Position numbers and translations under genes: made by a program. DNA of 12,980 bases, from contig JAWOFX010000161.1 of NCBI GenBank assembly GCA_046497275.1, forward strand, positions 1 through 12,980. Direction: 5' to 3'. Position 1 is the stretch's first letter. Each line of letters begins with the position of its first letter. The stretch is from Promethearchaeia archaeon. Lineage in GTDB: Archaea; Asgardarchaeota; Lokiarchaeia; Sigyniarchaeales; SOKP01. The notes under the pieces are model-generated. The model was not told the origin of the DNA and searched no databases. It saw only the letters and a list, made by a program, of their open reading frames with translations. Shown here piece by piece: positions 1 through 12,646 of the stretch.

Positions 1-28
1 TTTGCTTGTTGAATTATTTATAAGTTCT

Positions 29-58
29 AAAAAAAATAATAGAAAAAGAAAAATTCAA
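29..58 (-). terminator. Probable oligo-T terminator downstream of tRNA-Sec
   Basis: The minus strand after the tRNA CCA reads TTGAATTTTTCTTTTTCTATTATTTTTTTT (T5, T5 and T8 runs), typical of archaeal intrinsic terminators. Confidence 0.5.
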
Positions 59-181
59 TGGCGGCCCAGGGGGGGATTTTCTTGATCTTAGCAAACTAAA
101 ACCATATCGAACCCCTATCCCTCCGCGGGATAACTGGATTTGAAGTCCAGCGTCAGAGACCACTCCAGACCGCCCCGGGCC
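59..181 (-). tRNA. selC: tRNA-Sec (anticodon UCA), 9/4 fold, with a 29-nt T-loop intron; 123-nt gene, 94-nt predicted mature tRNA, CCA encoded
   Basis: Manual fold of the reverse complement: 9-bp acceptor stem GGCCCGGGG/CCCTGGGCC, discriminator G, CCA; long D stem with TGGT loop; 6-bp anticodon stem GCTGGA/TCCAGT with loop CT-TCA-AA (anticodon 143-141); 6-bp variable arm TATCCC/GGGATA; 4-bp T stem GGGG/CCCC. SelB lies 3.3 kb away. Confidence 0.97.
77..105 (-). other. 29-nt tRNA intron at position 59/60 (T-loop), relaxed bulge-helix-bulge motif
   Basis: 36 nt separate the T-stem strands instead of 7. They fold as central helix TTCG/AGAA (one G.A pair), 3-nt bulges ATA and AAT, and a 9-bp hairpin TGGTTTTAG/CTAAGATCA. 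Cutting after the 2nd nt of each bulge restores the canonical T-loop TTCGATT. Confidence 0.9.
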
Positions 182-201
182 ATAGGTTTTAGTTGGGATT
201 C

Positions 202-211
202 TTTTATATTT
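202..211 (-). promoter_or_regulatory. Candidate TATA box for tRNA-Sec
   Basis: Minus strand AAATATAAAA lies about 21-30 nt upstream of the tRNA 5' G (181), the expected archaeal spacing. The AT-rich background limits specificity. Confidence 0.45.
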
Positions 212-1077: not shown

Positions 1078-1800
1078 TTATGTATCATCATTAAGTTGGG
1101 AGGTAATTTTATCTCGAGATCTTAGAAAATCTTTCAAAGATAGTATCTCATTTAGCTTAAATCTTTTAATTCCTAATTCTGACATCTCATAACCGTAAAC
1201 TCGTTCGATAAATCTCTCAATCAGGTGTGCTGTTGCGCCCCATATAAGATATTTCTTATTAAAGTGTGGATCTTTATATGTAAAATAGAAAACAGGAAAC
1301 TTTTTTCCTTCAATTTTAAATGCTTGTTCTCTGAAATTTGTCTTTTTTATGAAAAAATCGATTGGTACTTTCAAAATTTTCTGTACTTCTCTTTCTTGTC
1401 GGACCAAGGGAGCATTTGGATTAATTTTAGCAACGTAAGGGCTAACTATATATTTTGTCATTGTAGGGAAATCATTTAAACATCCCAATAATGTAATATC
1501 GTTTCTAGAAACGCCGATTTCCTCTATAGCTTCTCTTATCGCTGTATCTAATAAATTTTTATCTTTCAAAGGATCGAATTTACCCCCTGGAAACGACATT
1601 TCTCCTCTATGCTTCGTTCCTTTATTGGTTCTATGGATTATTATTAACTCATATGGTTTATTCTCATAAGGAACGATCGAAAATAAGACTGCAGAATTAA
1701 TAAATAACTTATCAGTCAATTGAATTCGTTTCGGATCATCACAAGGAATTAATTTCTCCCTAATCAATTTCTCGTCGAAAACAAAATCTACTGGAACCAT
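1078..1800 (-). CDS. Nudix hydrolase, CoA pyrophosphatase (NudL/NUDT7-like) family, paralogue 2
   Basis: HRGEMSFPGG, Nudix box GGKFDPLKDKNLLDTAIREAIEEIGV, EREV and WGATA. ATG at 1800 is preferred over the track's TTG at 1812 because MVPVDFVFD aligns with MMNSFIFD of paralogue 1. Confidence 0.9.
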   Translation of the reverse strand: MVPVDFVFDEKLIREKLIPCDDPKRIQLTDKLFINSAVLFSIVPYENKPYELIIIHRTNKGTKHRGEMSFPGGKFDPLKDKNLLDTAIREAIEEIGVSRNDITLLGCLNDFPTMTKYIVSPYVAKINPNAPLVRQEREVQKILKVPIDFFIKKTNFREQAFKIEGKKFPVFYFTYKDPHFNKKYLIWGATAHLIERFIERVYGYEMSELGIKRFKLNEILSLKDFLRSRDKITSQLNDDT

Positions 1801-1890
1801 AGATAAGAGCAAAAATTTTAAGATTATGCTTAATTGTTAATCATAATATTTGATTTAAAATAAAATTTTTAGTGGATTTGGTGGTTTCTT

Positions 1891-2404: not shown

Positions 2405-3283
2405 CTACTGGAGTAATTTTTCAACAGTGTCGATTTTAGCTTTTACTTTCTTTAATTTGAACTCTAAATCATTTCGAATTTCCTTATATTCATCTTCTTC
2501 AATCTCTTTAGAAGAAAATCTTCCTTTATTGAGTTTTAGATCCCCAATTAAATCATTTTCTTCAATTTTTAATTCCTGTATCCACTCTTTCATACCAGCC
2601 CTTAAATCAGATAACTCTTCTTCTATTTCTTCTTTAGATTTTTTATATTTAGATTTCAAGTTATCAAAGGTATTCTTATCCACTTTTTTTAATCTGTATT
2701 GTCGGGTGAGGTTCTTGAGTTGAAAAACTTTAGCATCTAACTCATTTTTAAGCTTTTGAATTATGAATGTATCACTCATTTCTTTTTCTAATTTCTTTTC
2801 TCTCTCTTTTAGCTCTTTAATCAATGTTTTTACAGCTTCAAATTTTATATTTGTTTTCTGTTTAAAATTAAAATCATATTCATATTTCTCTTCTTTCATC
2901 ATGTTAGAAACATTTTCTAGTTTCTTTCCCAATGTTTCTTTATGAAATTGAATGTCTGAATATTCTGCATAATGTTCGATTTGTTTTTTCACATCTTCTG
3001 GTAAGGGTTTAACTTCTTTTATCTCTTCCTCTTCTTCTTTTTCTTCTTCTTCGATCTCTAATTCCTCTTCTACTCCTTCTGGTTCCTCTTCCTCCTTAAC
3101 TTTCTCTTTTTCTTTTTTACCTTTTGATTCTTTTTTTGCTTGTGCAATATCTTCTTGCATTTTCTTCTCTGCTTGTTGCTCAGCTTTCTTCGAAAGATCT
3201 GCCAATAAAGGCTTTCCGCAGATAATGCAATATTTATCATTAGGTTTAACTGGGTTACCGCAGTATGGACAAAATTTAGCCAT
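2405..3283 (-). CDS. Zinc-ribbon (CPYC...CIIC) + acidic linker + CdvA-like coiled-coil protein
   Basis: N-terminal C4 ribbon (aa 5-22), Glu-rich tract (aa 64-90), helical C-terminus with two related turn motifs (YRLKKVDKNTFDNLK and FSSKEIEEDEYKEIR). SD GAGGT at 3297-3293. Confidence 0.85.
   Translation of the reverse strand: MAKFCPYCGNPVKPNDKYCIICGKPLLADLSKKAEQQAEKKMQEDIAQAKKESKGKKEKEKVKEEEEPEGVEEELEIEEEEKEEEEEIKEVKPLPEDVKKQIEHYAEYSDIQFHKETLGKKLENVSNMMKEEKYEYDFNFKQKTNIKFEAVKTLIKELKEREKKLEKEMSDTFIIQKLKNELDAKVFQLKNLTRQYRLKKVDKNTFDNLKSKYKKSKEEIEEELSDLRAGMKEWIQELKIEENDLIGDLKLNKGRFSSKEIEEDEYKEIRNDLEFKLKKVKAKIDTVEKLLQ
3014..3094 (-). repeat. Low-complexity GAA/GAG (poly-Glu) coding tract
   Basis: 19 of 27 codons (aa 64-90) encode Glu; mixed GAA/GAG, not a perfect tandem repeat. 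Confidence 0.7.
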
Positions 3284-3436: not shown

Positions 3437-4855
3437 ATGGACATTAAAAAGAAAACTCCAGTGAATTTAGGATTATTTGGGCATATCGATAGCGGAAAGA
3501 CTGCTATAGCAGAGGTGCTATCAGAAATAATTTCAACAGCGGGTATTGATGCCCATCCTCAGAGTAAGGAACGAGGGATTACAATAGATTTAGGATTTAC
3601 AAGTTTTATTCTTGATAATTTTTTAGTAACTCTTGTGGACGCTCCTGGACATGCTGATTTATTGAAAATTAGCGCCTCCTCAATAGAAATAATCGATGTA
3701 GCACTGATAGTTATAGATATTAATAAGGGACCTCAAATTCAGACCGGTGAGCATTTAGTTATGATTGAATCTTTAGGAATAGAAGAGATAATTGTTATCC
3801 TAAATAAAACTGATTTATTTAAAGGAAATATTGAAGATCAAATTAATAATACTCGAAAATTCTTTGAGTCAACATCTTTTGGTCCAAATATTCCTATATA
3901 TGCCGTATCTTCAAAAGAAACAACAGGATTTGAATCATTAAAAACAGGTATTCTAAAGAAAGTCAATACTTTAGAATTAAAACGCGCCTACAATGAAGAT
4001 ACAGTTATACCAATAGACCATCATTTTTCAGTTAAAGGAATAGGGTCTGTATTGACGGGCACAGTTGTCTCTGGAAGAGTTCATTTAGGAGATCAATTAT
4101 CAATCCTTCCTATTAATATAAAGGGAAGAGTGAAGAATATACAGATCTTTCATGAAAATGTAGATTCTGCGGGAGCTGGGCATAGAGTTGGACTAAATAT
4201 GAAAAATATTGATGTGAAAAATATTTATCGTGGATGCTATGCGACAAATAACATAAATGTATTTGAGTATTGTACCATTGCAAATGTGAAAGTTAAGAAG
4301 TCAGAAATCTTTAAACCGAAAATAAATTTTGGCACCCAATTACATATAACTATAGGTATGGCAACTTCTGTAGGTAAAATCTATCCTTACAATGAGAGAG
4401 ATAATAAGAGGATTAGAAAATCCATTTCAGCTGAACAAACTGAATTTAATGCGATAATTTGGTTTAATGAAAAGGTTTTAATGAGAAAAAAGAGAAATAT
4501 TATGCTTCTTAGTCGATTAGATTTACCTCCAACCACTTTAAGAATTCTAGGATCAGCTAAACTCATCCAGATTCTTGATAAACCCCCTATTTTGCATAAA
4601 TACAAAACTAAAATAGGTAAAATCACAAATCCTGATCATTCTCAAGGAATCATATGTACTGGATTGGCTAGAAGCGTCGAAGGTGCGAGGAAGATTGTCG
4701 GTCGTGAATTAGAATCGCCATTTACCAAAATCAAAGATACATTTGGAACGAAGGGGGCAGTTATCGTAGGTGTAGAAAAAGGAAAAGCAGAGATTCAAAA
4801 AAATGATCCAGTAATTCTTAAAGAATTACGATATTTCAAGTTAAAAAACATTTAA
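3437..4855 (+). CDS. selB: Selenocysteine-specific translation elongation factor SelB/EFSec (archaeal type, with domain IV)
   Basis: G motifs GHIDSGKT, RGITIDLGF, DAPG and NKTD. Domain II has DHHF and HRVG (the SelB-type Arg where EF-Tu/EF1A has Asn). Short archaeal domain IV with TFGTKG. tRNA-Sec nearby. Confidence 0.95.
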   Translation: MDIKKKTPVNLGLFGHIDSGKTAIAEVLSEIISTAGIDAHPQSKERGITIDLGFTSFILDNFLVTLVDAPGHADLLKISASSIEIIDVALIVIDINKGPQIQTGEHLVMIESLGIEEIIVILNKTDLFKGNIEDQINNTRKFFESTSFGPNIPIYAVSSKETTGFESLKTGILKKVNTLELKRAYNEDTVIPIDHHFSVKGIGSVLTGTVVSGRVHLGDQLSILPINIKGRVKNIQIFHENVDSAGAGHRVGLNMKNIDVKNIYRGCYATNNINVFEYCTIANVKVKKSEIFKPKINFGTQLHITIGMATSVGKIYPYNERDNKRIRKSISAEQTEFNAIIWFNEKVLMRKKRNIMLLSRLDLPPTTLRILGSAKLIQILDKPPILHKYKTKIGKITNPDHSQGIICTGLARSVEGARKIVGRELESPFTKIKDTFGTKGAVIVGVEKGKAEIQKNDPVILKELRYFKLKNI

Positions 4856-4895: not shown

Positions 4896-5318
4896 TTGGC
4901 AAGTAGTCATTGGTCTGAATTAGAAGGAGTTGACAAGGAAGTATTAGCTGAATTAATGAAAAGCTTAGAATGGTTGGAAAGCTCAACAGATTTAGAGGGA
5001 ACTGCGATAGTTTCCAAAACAGGTCTTCGAGTAGCCAGTTCTGAGACAGCTGACGTTGTTGCGGACATATACAGCGCAAGTCCGGCAACCTTACTCTCAT
5101 TAGGAGAGAAAATTAGTAATAGTTTAGACCAAGGGGAACTTCGTGAAATTGTAATTAGAGGGACGAATGGGTATACCATTATAGTTGTAGGTTCTGCCGA
5201 GAAAAACTTTATGTTATTTACTAATTGTAAAAAAGGTTATAAACTCGGATATTACTTTCATAAGATTCGAAAGGCTTTTCGGTCTATGGAACCGCTTTTA
5301 GATAAGATTAAAGCTTAA
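4896..5318 (+). CDS. Roadblock/LC7 (MglB-like) domain protein
   Basis: Typical pattern: EGTAIVSKTGLRVASS, helix, then ELREIVIRGTNGYTIIV beta strands and a C-terminal helix. TTG start with SD GAGGT at 4884-4888. Confidence 0.85.
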   Translation: MASSHWSELEGVDKEVLAELMKSLEWLESSTDLEGTAIVSKTGLRVASSETADVVADIYSASPATLLSLGEKISNSLDQGELREIVIRGTNGYTIIVVGSAEKNFMLFTNCKKGYKLGYYFHKIRKAFRSMEPLLDKIKA

Positions 5319-8378: not shown

Positions 8379-8867
8379 TTATTCTTGCTCTTCTGAATAA
8401 AGAAAATTAACTTTTCCTCCAGCATCCTCGATTTTCTGAATAGCATTCTTAGAGGCTTTTTTAACAGTCAAATTTACTTTTTTGTTAATTTGTCCCTTCC
8501 CCAATACTTTTTGGATATTCATATCAACTAAATTAATCGAATATGTATCTCCAGATTTTGTTGCTTTTTCTTGTTGTACTAGATCTTCAAGTTTTAAATC
8601 TATATCCTTAACATTAATCGTGTTTACTTTTGAGAGACGAACTATATCCTGTGGGCGTTTAAACCCTGTTTTTCCTATTATCCAGTCGGGATCTGGAAAA
8701 CCTAATTCTTTTTGTTTGAGATAATAACTTTTTTTGCTTTTTTTCCACTGTGTGGTTTTTCCTCTTCCAGCCCGTTGACCAGTCCCTCTGTGTTGCCCAA
8801 CACGACCATATCCAAAAGTTCTTTTCCCTCTTTGCTTTTTAGTCTTTTTTTTGTGTTTCCTTGTCAT
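8379..8867 (-). CDS. rpl15: 50S ribosomal protein uL15
   Basis: RGKRTFGYGRVGQHRG, GKTGF, KVLGKG and ASKNAIQKIEDAGGKV motifs; position after uL30. Confidence 0.97.
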   Translation of the reverse strand: MTRKHKKKTKKQRGKRTFGYGRVGQHRGTGQRAGRGKTTQWKKSKKSYYLKQKELGFPDPDWIIGKTGFKRPQDIVRLSKVNTINVKDIDLKLEDLVQQEKATKSGDTYSINLVDMNIQKVLGKGQINKKVNLTVKKASKNAIQKIEDAGGKVNFLYSEEQE

Positions 8868-8880
8868 CTAGATTCCCTCT

Positions 8881-9405
8881 TTATACCATTCTATAAATTA
8901 ATTCATTAATATAATTTCCAACATATCCCAGCGTTCCACCCTCATTAAAAGCTTTTTTAATTGAGCCTCGATGTCCTTTGATGGGAGGGTGCAATCGAAA
9001 TACGGGTTTGACCTTATAAAGGTGATCAGTATTATATTTTATTTTACCACTATGTAAATCCTTAGCGAATTCCTTAATAGTTTTATAATCTGTAAGATTT
9101 TTAATATAATCATCCGTGAGGTGTTTATTCCCTTCTGCCCTTCCTCGCACACGTAATAATCTAACCAATGTTTTTTCATCAATCTCCCCAAATGCTATAA
9201 AATCTTTCACTTTTTTTAGCATTCCTACAACACTCTTTGTGCCCCATAATAAAACTCCGTGATTTACTTTATGCATTCGTAACATTTTAAGCGTGTCATC
9301 TAATTTTTTGCTCATCCCGGGGCTTCCTCTTATACGGATTGCAAAGTATAATTTTGGTTCCTCAATTTGTTCCAACTTTAATTTCTTTTTACTCATATTT
9401 GCCAT
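8881..9405 (-). CDS. rpl30: 50S ribosomal protein uL30 (long archaeal form)
   Basis: AIRIRG, TLKMLRMHKVN, FRLHPPIKG and GYVGNYINELIYRM. ATG 9405 is preferred (8 nt after SD GGTGG at 9418-9414); the track starts at GTG 9420. Confidence 0.96.
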   Translation of the reverse strand: MANMSKKKLKLEQIEEPKLYFAIRIRGSPGMSKKLDDTLKMLRMHKVNHGVLLWGTKSVVGMLKKVKDFIAFGEIDEKTLVRLLRVRGRAEGNKHLTDDYIKNLTDYKTIKEFAKDLHSGKIKYNTDHLYKVKPVFRLHPPIKGHRGSIKKAFNEGGTLGYVGNYINELIYRMV

Positions 9406-9424
9406 AACCATATCCACCACTCAA

Positions 9425-10039
9425 TTAAACATTAAAAGCATATTTATGTGCATTTTTTAAGGCATTAATAGTTGCCTTAACTAGATTTTCACTCGTTCGA
9501 GTATCTCCAAAAGTTTTACTCCAAATGTCTTCTATTCCTGCTAATCTTAACACTTGTTTCACAGTATCCGCAACGGCGAGACCGACACCTTGCGGGGCGG
9601 GAATTAATTGGATTTTTACTGATCCTGTTTTTCCCTCGACTCTGAAGGGTATACTATGAGTTCCTCCACAACCACATTCTCTGCTTCCGCAACCTCTTAA
9701 AACTGGAAATATATTTAATTTCGCTTTCCCAATTGCTTTTCGAATTGCAGGACCAACTTCTTTACTTTTTGCTGAAGCTACTCCTAAAAATCCTTCTGCG
9801 CCAACAATCACAACTGCCTTAAATCTTGATTTTTGACCGCTTTGAGTCATCTGCTGAACCATTTTGATTGTTATTACATCTTCTTGAAGTTGTGGAAGTA
9901 GCGCATCAACTATTTGTTGTTCTTTAACAACAAGATTTTGTTGGAATATTTTATCCAATGTAATTAATCCCTGCTGTACGAGATCTCCTAATTTGGTCCT
10001 TGGAACCCATGCCTCTTCGTTATCTCGTCTTCTAGACAC
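9425..10039 (-). CDS. rps5: 30S ribosomal protein uS5
   Basis: WVPRTKLG, AIRKAI, GCGS.EC.C, LIPAPQGVGL and AGIEDIW; GTG start with SD AGGTGA. Confidence 0.98.
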   Translation of the reverse strand: MSRRRDNEEAWVPRTKLGDLVQQGLITLDKIFQQNLVVKEQQIVDALLPQLQEDVITIKMVQQMTQSGQKSRFKAVVIVGAEGFLGVASAKSKEVGPAIRKAIGKAKLNIFPVLRGCGSRECGCGGTHSIPFRVEGKTGSVKIQLIPAPQGVGLAVADTVKQVLRLAGIEDIWSKTFGDTRTSENLVKATINALKNAHKYAFNV

Positions 10040-10050
10040 TTTTTTTCACC

Positions 10051-10641
10051 TTATACATTGCTCTCAATCTTTTTTAAAGTTTTATTAAATATATCAGTGA
10101 ATTTTTGCGGATTTATCTTAGATTTTAAATATCCAGAAAATATTTGTTCATATTGTTCTGAATCTTCTTTTTTTAGAAATCGAGCATAATTCTCAATATG
10201 GGAACCATCAATCCTCTCTTCTAAGCTCCCTGTGAAAAATTCATCACGGTGAGGAAGGATTATTTCAGCATCGAGAATCCCCTTAAAAGCAGCAAGTACT
10301 CGATTACGATGGTATAAAAGGCCGAGATCAAGAATTGCCTCTTCAATTCCTTCCTTTTTCGCTCGTAAGCCAGCTAAATATCCTGTTAAATACGCTGCTG
10401 GAATATTTCCAGTATTTGCTTCCCATTCAAAGTCTTTAAGTAATTCTTTAGAATGTGCGGATGCTAATACTTTATCTCCACCCATCTTTGATTGAATTAT
10501 TTGAACAATTATATGATTTTCAGAGGCACGAATCACAGCTCGTAGTTTTCGTGACTTAATTAATTTTAAACGTCTATGATAATTCGTTTTACCTTCTGCT
10601 CTTCTTCTTAAAGGTTTTCTATATCGTGGTCCTTTTGCCAT
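10051..10641 (-). CDS. rpl18: 50S ribosomal protein uL18
   Basis: MAKGPRY, RRAEGKTNY and NIPAAYLTGYLAG; its start overlaps the eL19 stop (TAATG). Confidence 0.98.
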   Translation of the reverse strand: MAKGPRYRKPLRRRAEGKTNYHRRLKLIKSRKLRAVIRASENHIIVQIIQSKMGGDKVLASAHSKELLKDFEWEANTGNIPAAYLTGYLAGLRAKKEGIEEAILDLGLLYHRNRVLAAFKGILDAEIILPHRDEFFTGSLEERIDGSHIENYARFLKKEDSEQYEQIFSGYLKSKINPQKFTDIFNKTLKKIESNV

Positions 10642-11096
10642 TATCGTCCTCTCCTTATCATTTCGTTTTCCTTAATATATCTATTTAAATGTGTTACGGA
10701 GTCAAACATACCTCCTTTCGCATTTTTATACAACTTGCGATAGGTTGATTTTGTTATTAATTTCCGATCTCGTAATTTTTTAAGTTCTTTTCGGATAGGT
10801 CGGATTTTTTTAATCCACGCTTGTTTTTTTGGAGTTCGTGCTCCTTTCTTTCCTTTGCGCTTCCCTAATCCTCGAGCCCTACCTTTTTTCTTGCGTTCAT
10901 GTCTCTCCTTTTTGCGAAAATTTGAGATTCCCTTTTCATATTTTTTACGAATGACACCTTCATTAATTAAATTACGAATATCCTCTCGAGTAATTGCCAT
11001 TTTTATTTCATCTATTAAATATGGATCGAAATATACCCGATTCTCTCCGCAGTTTAATATTTCTGCGGCCATTCGTTTTTGAGCGTTAAGATTCAT
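10641..11096 (-). CDS. rpl19e: 50S ribosomal protein eL19
   Basis: QKRMAAEILNCGENRV, AITREDIRNLI, GKRKGKKGAR and YRKLYKNAKGG. Confidence 0.98.
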   Translation of the reverse strand: MNLNAQKRMAAEILNCGENRVYFDPYLIDEIKMAITREDIRNLINEGVIRKKYEKGISNFRKKERHERKKKGRARGLGKRKGKKGARTPKKQAWIKKIRPIRKELKKLRDRKLITKSTYRKLYKNAKGGMFDSVTHLNRYIKENEMIRRGR

Positions 11097-11135
11097 TTTT
11101 ATTACCTTTATTGCTATTTTTATGCGTATTCATAA

Positions 11136-11633
11136 TTAATAATCAAAATCTTCTAAATCTTCTAATTCCTCTTCATCTAATAACTCTTCGTCAGATAACT
11201 CTGGAACGCTTGTTTCTAACATTTTTTCAAGCTCTTCCAATTCTCTTTGAGAGATTCCAAGATTCAATATTTTAAACCCTCTTTTCTGAGCATAATCGAT
11301 TAAAGGGATCCGCTTCCTTGCCCCTAGTCGACTAGAAATTTTTATCGCATGCTGTTTAGGATTTAATCCTTCTAAGTCTTTTTTGGTTATTACACGTACT
11401 TCCTCATACCCAGAGGGATGTAATCCTCTAACCTCTTTCGGAGTACGATATCCAACATTCGGAGATTTTACGCCCGATTTTGTTTTTTTCCTTGTTTGTG
11501 AATCTATACCTCGGGCTTTCCTCCATGAGTCTTTCACTCTTTTATAGCGCCAAGACTCTACTCTTCTGAACTTAGGGCGCTTTTTCTTCATTTTCTTCCG
11601 AAGTTCCATTAAACTTTCTTTTTTTCGTGTCAT
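11136..11633 (-). CDS. rpl32e: 50S ribosomal protein eL32 with an acidic C-terminal extension
   Basis: RPKFRR, WRKARGIDS, GYRTPKEVRGLHPSGY and KILN, followed by a ~35-aa Asp/Glu-rich tail. Confidence 0.97.
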   Translation of the reverse strand: MTRKKESLMELRKKMKKKRPKFRRVESWRYKRVKDSWRKARGIDSQTRKKTKSGVKSPNVGYRTPKEVRGLHPSGYEEVRVITKKDLEGLNPKQHAIKISSRLGARKRIPLIDYAQKRGFKILNLGISQRELEELEKMLETSVPELSDEELLDEEELEDLEDFDY

Positions 11634-11656
11634 AAATTATCTCCAATTAGCGTTAA

Positions 11657-12241
11657 TTATTTGATTTGCCATAATATTTCATCCCCATGTAAGATTTTAT
11701 ATAAATAAACTCCATCCTGGAAGACTCGGGGATCTTTCTTTTTAATACGACAAACCTTTTTCAAATCTGCCGCTGTTTGTCCTAATACTTCCTTGTCAGC
11801 ACCAGAGAGTGCTACGTCGTCTTCCTTCACATCCACTTTTACTTTCTTTGGATTATATTTTATTACTCGAGGTGCTCGTTCACCAAGAAAATTAATCACA
11901 TGTATTTCTTGTTTATTTGGTTTCGCTTCCACATTAAATGGAAAGTGGCTGTAACATATTTTTGAAACATATGAATAATTTTTCAGAACACCTTCAATTA
12001 AATTATTAATAAGATTGATGATGGTATTCGCAAGCGCGAGCGTTGGCCCACGTGGAAAATTTGCTGTAAATACCAGTTTATTATCTTCCTTTGATACATG
12101 AATACCTCTAATATGAGAAAAATCCTTCGTGATCGGTCCTCCCTCTGGACCTTTAACTGTAATATGATGATTCCCTTCTAATGTGATCTCAACATCTTCG
12201 GGAATTGTTAGTTCTTCTCTAAAAAATGCTTGTTTTACCAT
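11657..12241 (-). CDS. rpl6: 50S ribosomal protein uL6
   Basis: IPEDV, VKGPEG, YSHFP, NFLGERAPR and KDPRVFQDGVY. Confidence 0.98.
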   Translation of the reverse strand: MVKQAFFREELTIPEDVEITLEGNHHITVKGPEGGPITKDFSHIRGIHVSKEDNKLVFTANFPRGPTLALANTIINLINNLIEGVLKNYSYVSKICYSHFPFNVEAKPNKQEIHVINFLGERAPRVIKYNPKKVKVDVKEDDVALSGADKEVLGQTAADLKKVCRIKKKDPRVFQDGVYLYKILHGDEILWQIK

Positions 12242-12262
12242 TTATTATCCACCTTTTTTCAA

Positions 12263-12646
12263 TTAATATACATAACAGAGTGCAATTCCACCGATCCCTT
12301 TCTCCTCTGCTTCTTCCATTGTCATTATTCCTTCATTTGTTGTTAATACTATTATTCCTAATCCAGGCGCCGGAAGTAAGCGTCTTTCAAGTGCCTCAAA
12401 CTGATCAAATTTGTAATTTAATCGTAAGAGCGCCTCGCATTGATTTATCCTTCCCAATAGCGCTATTTTGAACTTTCCTTGGCGGCCGTCATCGTAGCGT
12501 TCAAACTCACCCACATAAGCGTGTTGTTGGAAGATTCTAAGTACACGTTGAACTAGTTTGGACGCAGGGCTCACAATAACCTCTTTTTGACGCGCTCGTT
12601 CCGCATTTTTTATTTGAACCATACAATCTGCTAGTGTATTTACCAA
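12263..12646 (-). CDS. rps8: 30S ribosomal protein uS8
   Basis: LADCMVQIKNAE, YVGEFE, DGRQG, LPA, TTNEGIMT and AEEKGIGG. TTG start; in-frame TGA three codons upstream. Confidence 0.97.
   Translation of the reverse strand: MVNTLADCMVQIKNAERARQKEVIVSPASKLVQRVLRIFQQHAYVGEFERYDDGRQGKFKIALLGRINQCEALLRLNYKFDQFEALERRLLPAPGLGIIVLTTNEGIMTMEEAEEKGIGGIALCYVY

Follow-up and report, generated by a model that had tools for sequence, protein, structure and literature searches.

A bulge-helix-bulge intron in the T-loop of the single-copy tRNA-Sec gene of a Loki-type Asgard archaeon

The tRNA-Sec gene and its surroundings

The window analyzed here, a stretch of 12,980 nucleotides from a Promethearchaeia archaeon (GenBank assembly GCA_046497275.1, contig JAWOFX010000161.1), carries a tRNA-Sec gene close to its first position (Table 1). 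It is encoded on the minus strand (181-59), a point on which the earlier note on this DNA was silent. It has the 9/4 fold, the anticodon UCA, G73, and an encoded CCA, together with the 9-bp acceptor stem, 4-bp T-stem, and long variable arm of archaeal tRNA-Sec, and the PSTK identity pairs G2-C71 and C3-G70 are intact in the sequence. The Rfam model RF01852 matches at 181-63 with 49.4 bits (gathering score, 47; E value, 1.3e-7), and the stretch that the model leaves unaligned falls in the T-loop. ARAGORN does not call the unspliced gene, either with or without the -i option, but after in silico removal of 105-77, it reports a 94-nt tRNA-SeC(tca). The earlier expectation that tRNA finders may miss the gene is therefore borne out for ARAGORN but not for the Rfam/Infernal search. 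The TATA-like element, a putative promoter 20 to 30 nt upstream of the gene, is weakly conserved among relatives, and a scan for sigma-70 promoters, a model that is not apt for archaea, returned only chance-level matches.

The gene order at the locus is SelB (on the opposite strand, 3.3 kb upstream of tRNA-Sec), a zinc-ribbon protein, two Nudix genes, tRNA-Sec, ilvD, and SepSecS. In most relatives, SepSecS directly follows tRNA-Sec; here ilvD stands between the two, and an ilvD gene also follows the tRNA at one other locus (L178). The tandem Nudix pair upstream of tRNA-Sec is retained in many relatives. Besides SelB and SepSecS, the genome encodes a PSTK-like protein, which scores below the curated cutoff, and a SelD with an in-frame TGA, so that both the machinery for Sec and a selenoprotein are present. 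A second and weaker PSTK-like match (C35:1794-2345, L171) contains one TGA and one TAA and may represent a kinase gene that is broken or split by an intron.

Table 1 Features of the tRNA-Sec locus and related tRNA genes (window positions unless a contig is named)
Feature	Coordinates	Strand	Basis or remark
tRNA-Sec 5' exon	106..181	-	Sequence, RF01852, ARAGORN on spliced form, fold parse
5' exon: acceptor 5' strand; D-arm; anticodon arm (UCA)	181-173; 170-152; 151-133 (143-141)	-	
5' exon: variable arm; T-stem 5' strand; T-loop 54-59	132-116; 115-112; 111-106	-	
Extra bulged U, 5' strand of 7-bp D-stem	167..167	-	Fold parse, survey of relatives, runs X1 and X6
BHB intron, 29 nt, between positions 59 and 60	77..105	-	
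Intron: h' stem; central-helix partner	104-96/91-83; 82-79	-	
tRNA-Sec 3' exon	59..76	-	Begins with U60
3' exon: T-stem 3' strand; acceptor 3' strand	75-72; 71-63	-	
3' exon: discriminator G; encoded CCA	62; 61-59	-	
TATA-like element, putative promoter	201..211	-	Sequence; consensus of the upstream regions in 118 relatives
U-rich 3' trailer	1..58	-	Runs on into contig C33
CoA-pyrophosphatase-like Nudix hydrolase genes (two, codirectional)	295-978, 1078-1812	-	
Zinc-ribbon coiled-coil protein	2405-3283	-	
SelB/EFSec, Sec-specific elongation factor	3437..4855	+	TIGR00475, 234 bits (cutoff, 242); PF21440 aSelB_III above cutoff
Roadblock/LC7 gene	4896-5318	+	Right after SelB
Ribosomal protein cluster (L15, L30, S5, L18, L19e, L32e, L6, S8)	8379-12646	-	Named by sequence
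ilvD-like dehydratase	C33:199-1911		Continues from window position 1
SepSecS	C33:2081-3445		
Eight other tRNAs with T-loop introns	C34:37189, C158:20790(-), C156:4408, C156:83679, C85:8694, C32 (two genes), C25:39448		

The tRNA-Sec gene of this Loki-type Asgard archaeon is a single-copy gene. A second Rfam match at C33:11-129 was rejected as a separate gene; it falls in a 191-nt overlap of contig ends, of which the assembly has many. For this reason, the break between contigs at this tRNA does not signal an integrated element either, a reading that was also rejected. Neither an intron-less copy nor the spliced junction occurs in the 98.9%-complete assembly. Because the only copy is interrupted and the spliced junction is found nowhere else, Sec decoding would depend on splicing, as the earlier note had proposed.

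The T-loop insert and its removal

The insert is real and was correctly read in the earlier note. The cut register is unique, since no other placement of a 29-nt cut yields the same product or the conserved T-loop. The fold parse likewise bears out a bulge-helix-bulge (BHB) motif with U54-U55-C56-G57 in the central helix. The T-stem (115-112/75-72) forms helix h; U54-A79, U55-A80, and C56-G81 are paired and G57.A82 is a mismatch, giving three of four central pairs; and helix h' consists of nine unbroken pairs closed by a 4-nt loop. The two 3-nt bulges (107-105 and 78-76) place the junctions where a cut after the second bulge base is expected. This complete hBHBh' fold, together with the unique register, supports an intron at 59/60. 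Both flanking helices are present (the 4-bp T-stem and the 9-bp intron stem), removal restores a conserved tRNA, and intron-less orthologues exist. At least three central pairs alone arise in 23% of 200,000 shuffles of the insert, and at least three central pairs with an unbroken 9-bp h' arise in 0.0105% of them (about 1e-4). The minimum free energy fold of the free RNA leaves the central helix open, at -13.6 kcal/mol versus -11.7 kcal/mol with the BHB forced, a difference of 1.9 kcal/mol. Under the strict rule of a recent preprint (Goswami et al., bioRxiv 10.64898/2026.10.13.758758), which demands all four central pairs, the motif would rank as relaxed.

The locus was compared with one DNA run (X1) and three RNA runs (X5, X6, and X9). 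The DNA run retains the insert over positions 1 to 715 without any difference. The same run also holds, as its record 2, a rarer second relative whose tRNA-Sec has a different acceptor stem and no T-loop intron. The RNA runs X5 and X9 have no coverage of the gene and are uninformative. In X6, a salt-lake metatranscriptome, the 211-nt contig X6-8 (depth, 2.7) spans positions 199 to 1 and 41 further bases; exactly 29 letters (77-105) are absent from it, and it is otherwise identical, with 0 differences over 170 aligned bases, the D-stem U included, and with the leader and trailer flanks present. As a single low-depth contig from one run, it would be one exact spliced molecule. With leader and trailer retained, it would represent a spliced but untrimmed precursor, and since its first base lies 18 nt upstream of the gene, near the TATA-like box, it would have to stem from read-through transcription. 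In the literature, no RNA evidence for the splicing of this intron was found.

The genome encodes two EndA paralogues (C46:30059-30664 and C168:8025-8627). The catalytic-type protein aligns over its full length with the alpha subunit from Aeropyrum pernix (3P1Z; E value, 3e-38), and the alignment takes in the Crenarchaea-specific loop, whose lysine is K59 (K44 in A. pernix). It retains Y142, H150, and K181, which are presumably the catalytic triad, and the second paralogue lacks the His. By these sequence features, the enzyme is predicted to be of the (alpha-beta)2 type with a CSL/L1 loop, as reported for Asgard archaea (PMC5829648); the broad-specificity EndA that the earlier note considered necessary for relaxed motifs at sites other than 37/38 thus appears to be encoded here, as indicated by the loop lysine, the triad, and the second paralogue. 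Two full-length RtcB ligase genes are also present (C100:5154-6461 and C145:7959-9266), a number that may be related to the heavy load of BHB introns.

In the proposed pathway, the 4-bp T-stem of the precursor would serve as helix h, T-loop bases 54 to 57 would form the central helix with the 3' end of the intron, which would also fold a 9-bp stem of its own. The putative (alpha-beta)2 EndA with its Crenarchaea-type loop would cut each bulge after its second base, that is, after U59 and before U60, and RtcB would join the exons. Splicing could precede the trimming of the 5' leader and 3' trailer, and the mature tRNA would then pass through SerRS, PSTK, and SepSecS before reaching SelB.

Intron sites among relatives and in known systems

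Of the 154 genomes of the order, 135 gave matches when searched with the 5' exon, and 133 genes were parsed; five loci, mostly at contig ends, could not be parsed, and the G171 gene is incomplete. The f7 genes were kept out of the counts because they had been chosen by model score, which favors intron-less genes. One or two introns interrupt 64 of the 133 tRNA-Sec genes, and none is present in 68. The D-stem 5' strand is interrupted in 49 genes, 37/38 in 12, and 59/60 in 49, and introns at all three sites together occur in none of the 133 parsed genes (L041-L169 and L178). The D-stem introns of five genus g2 genomes (G147, G199, G207, G212, and G224) fit a BHB one base off the parsed register and probably occupy a neighboring site. 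One metagenome-assembled genome (MAG), G177, has two different tRNA-Sec genes, one intron-less and one with two introns (L054 and L109), which is probably due to mixed binning. Since ARAGORN misses the present gene and nearly half of the surveyed genes are interrupted, Sec use can be under-called.

The closest tRNA-Sec belongs to a genome of the same genus (G268), is identical at 91 of 93 bases, and carries the T-loop intron plus an intron at 37/38. In a metagenome relative that is very close (its SelB is 95.6% identical), this intron recurs with the stem preserved, alongside a D-stem intron. Within the family, the T-loop intron is present in 48 of 121 genes (about 40%) and absent from 73, and it occurs in 1 of 10 genes of the sister family. 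Forty-five of the 48 have a second intron; the T-loop intron stands alone in the other three, among them the present gene. At least three of the four central bases are paired in each of the 44 distinct 59/60 introns (29 to 32 nt), whereas shuffles give a mean of 9.3 and a maximum of 19; positions of h' are paired in 80% of cases in the relatives' 59/60 introns versus 42% in shuffles, with two-sided changes. Beyond the BHB, no conserved intron motif was found, and a search for a donor of the intron elsewhere in the genome gave just chance matches of 12 to 14 nt.

The T-arm intron mentioned in the earlier note was indeed already reported for Lokiarchaeota tRNA-Sec. The gene described by Mariotti et al. 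(2016; PMC4989117) has a 31-nt intron in the T-loop and EFSec nearby on the opposite strand, and later papers restate it (among them Santesmasses et al. 2017; PMC5330540). That gene shares with the present one the 9/4 fold, the 7-bp D-stem, the T-loop intron, and an EFSec gene a few kilobases upstream on the opposite strand, and it differs in the intron length (31 versus 29 nt here), the distance to SelB (about 6 versus 3.3 kb), and the bulged U in the D-stem of the present gene; its intron is assumed here to occupy 59/60 as well, and the text consulted offers no splice register, BHB analysis, or RNA evidence. The word "intron" is absent from the text of Sun et al. 2021. The present locus is thus a new instance of a feature published in 2016, to which the RNA evidence, the intron-linked T-stem pair, and the unique D-stem U are small additions. 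The earlier view of the intron as lineage-typical rather than new stands as regards novelty, but "typical" overstates its occurrence in the family and the sister family.

Other Asgard archaea offer partial parallels. The supplementary tRNA table of Valentin-Alvarado et al. (2024; PMC11291895) includes intron-bearing tRNA-Sec, with three introns in Atabeyarchaeia and one in Freyarchaeia, which was found by Secmarker only. These lineages belong to other classes, 92 to 95% of their tRNAs are interrupted, and the positions of the Sec introns are not listed (PMC11291895). Noncanonical tRNA introns in Asgard archaea, with the T-arm as a main site and strong BHB motifs, are described by Goswami et al. 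(bioRxiv 10.64898/2026.10.13.758758), with repeated intron gains and turnover and widespread (alpha-beta)2 EndA; that preprint focuses on Jordi- and Atabeyarchaeia without RNA evidence, states that splicing has been demonstrated for none of its newly found sequences, and leaves the route of arrival open. Outside the Asgard archaea, the pre-tRNA-Cys of ARMAN-2 has an intron at the same 59/60 position; the paper on it also covers EndA of the CSL/L1 type, and an L1 loop with the conserved Lys has been reported for Asgard EndA (PMC5829648). The ARMAN-2 motif is a relaxed hBH, whereas the present one has both flanking helices.

Origin of the spliced contig, gene function, and intron turnover

The RNA evidence could be questioned if contig X6-8 derived from the DNA of an intron-less strain carried over into the RNA library, a reading that touches this evidence only and leaves the intron itself real. 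The libraries cover intergenic DNA as shallowly as genes, X6-8 spans leader and trailer, and intron-less alleles are frequent in the family, even beside near-identical SepSecS genes. However, the contig matches without a difference and includes a D-stem U exclusive to this genome; the intron is present in both of the public DNA sequences that match this acceptor haplotype, with no intron-less DNA form of the haplotype across two collections; and intron loss among relatives is usually accompanied by exon changes. Carry-over is an unlikely source of X6-8. The same D-stem U bears on whether the gene is decaying into a pseudogene, through the D-stem insertion or the insert. The D-stem has seven pairs, a 4-nt loop, and one bulged U at 167, on account of which the mature tRNA is 94 nt long rather than the 93 nt of 130 of the 133 parsed genes. 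This U is exclusive to the present gene among the surveyed tRNA-Sec genes and is confirmed by both X1 and X6-8. It was not taken as the scar of a lost D-stem intron, as it sits 3 nt off the D-intron site. The bulge could lower activity, with a D-arm energy of -4.8 versus -8.6 kcal/mol. The C-terminal domain of archaeal PSTK binds the D-stem (PMC3035459), but the enzyme depends chiefly on G2-C71 and C3-G70, and the D-arm is only a minor element for it (PMC2330242). Against decay, every stem is paired, and the gene is the sole tRNA-Sec copy in a genome whose SelD itself requires Sec, which makes a pseudogene extremely improbable.

The earlier note had also raised splicing as a possible control point, which would mean that removal of the intron is regulated and Sec-specific, for example, slowed when selenium is scarce, and sets the level of mature tRNA-Sec. 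The single copy of the gene, its proximity to SepSecS and SelB, and the G57.A mismatch, which is found in all 21 genes of the family that have the G-rich acceptor haplotype (the present gene included) and could tune the cleavage rate, are compatible with such a role. On the other hand, eight other tRNAs of this genome bear T-loop introns, a count that covers only rechecked cases from a rough cloverleaf census in which some anticodons are miscalled. Introns at 59/60 interrupt tRNA-Asn(GTT), Trp(CCA), Val(TAC), Val(CAC), and one gene on C85, and introns at 58/59 interrupt tRNA-Thr(CGT), Lys(TTT), and Ala(GGC); for the anticodons of tRNA-Asn(GTT) and tRNA-Trp(CCA), no further gene was found, and ARAGORN calls none of the eight correctly. 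In addition, the state of the T-loop intron changes at least 18 times on the SepSecS tree (101 family members, quick IQ-TREE, SH-aLRT only; 18 loci with insufficient SepSecS omitted), including between the near-identical neighbors G135 and G181. Neither conserved presence nor a Sec-specific feature, the marks of a regulatory intron, was found. Because other tRNAs need the same step and most family genes do without the intron, a control point is not supported; a switch function of the intron is unlikely, and regulated removal in the form outlined above is very unlikely. The gene is, with high probability, an ordinary working archaeal tRNA-Sec gene whose BHB intron at 59/60 is constitutively removed, and the intron a tolerated passenger with fast turnover rather than a Sec-specific device.

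The turnover itself leaves a trace in the T-stem. Outside the G-rich acceptor haplotype, to which the present gene belongs, A52-U62 is the usual pair in alleles with the intron, and G52-C62 or C-G in those without it; of the 26 family genes with A52-U62, 25 carry the T-loop intron. Among 13 independent pairs of relatives on well-supported branches, 10 show the 52-62 pair changing together with the intron, and none shows the opposite direction (sign test, P = 0.002). The mature tRNAs of G135 and G181 differ solely at bases 52 and 62. The G-rich haplotype occupies three separate tree positions, always with the intron and the G.A mismatch. The T-loop intron is also tied to the D-stem intron, in about 10 of 14 independent pairs and almost never in the opposite direction. 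Unlike in a clean cDNA loss, both flanks change, which points to recombinational exchange of the T-arm allele. Tentatively, with slightly less than even chances, the T-loop intron may be gained and lost in the family when alleles recombine and exchange the entire T-arm or a larger part of the gene, rather than by clean insertion or cDNA loss; the alternatives are chimeric MAGs and selection that links the intron to the stem pair. This reading concerns the family, and for the present gene gain and retention are indistinguishable.

For the coming and going of tRNA introns in Asgard archaea, the locus offers a compact test case. If X6-8 is what it appears to be, it would count among the early RNA-level records of splicing of an Asgard tRNA intron before end trimming, and if the exchange of T-arm alleles is true, it would give Asgard tRNA introns a concrete way of turning over, a point that the 2026 preprint left open.
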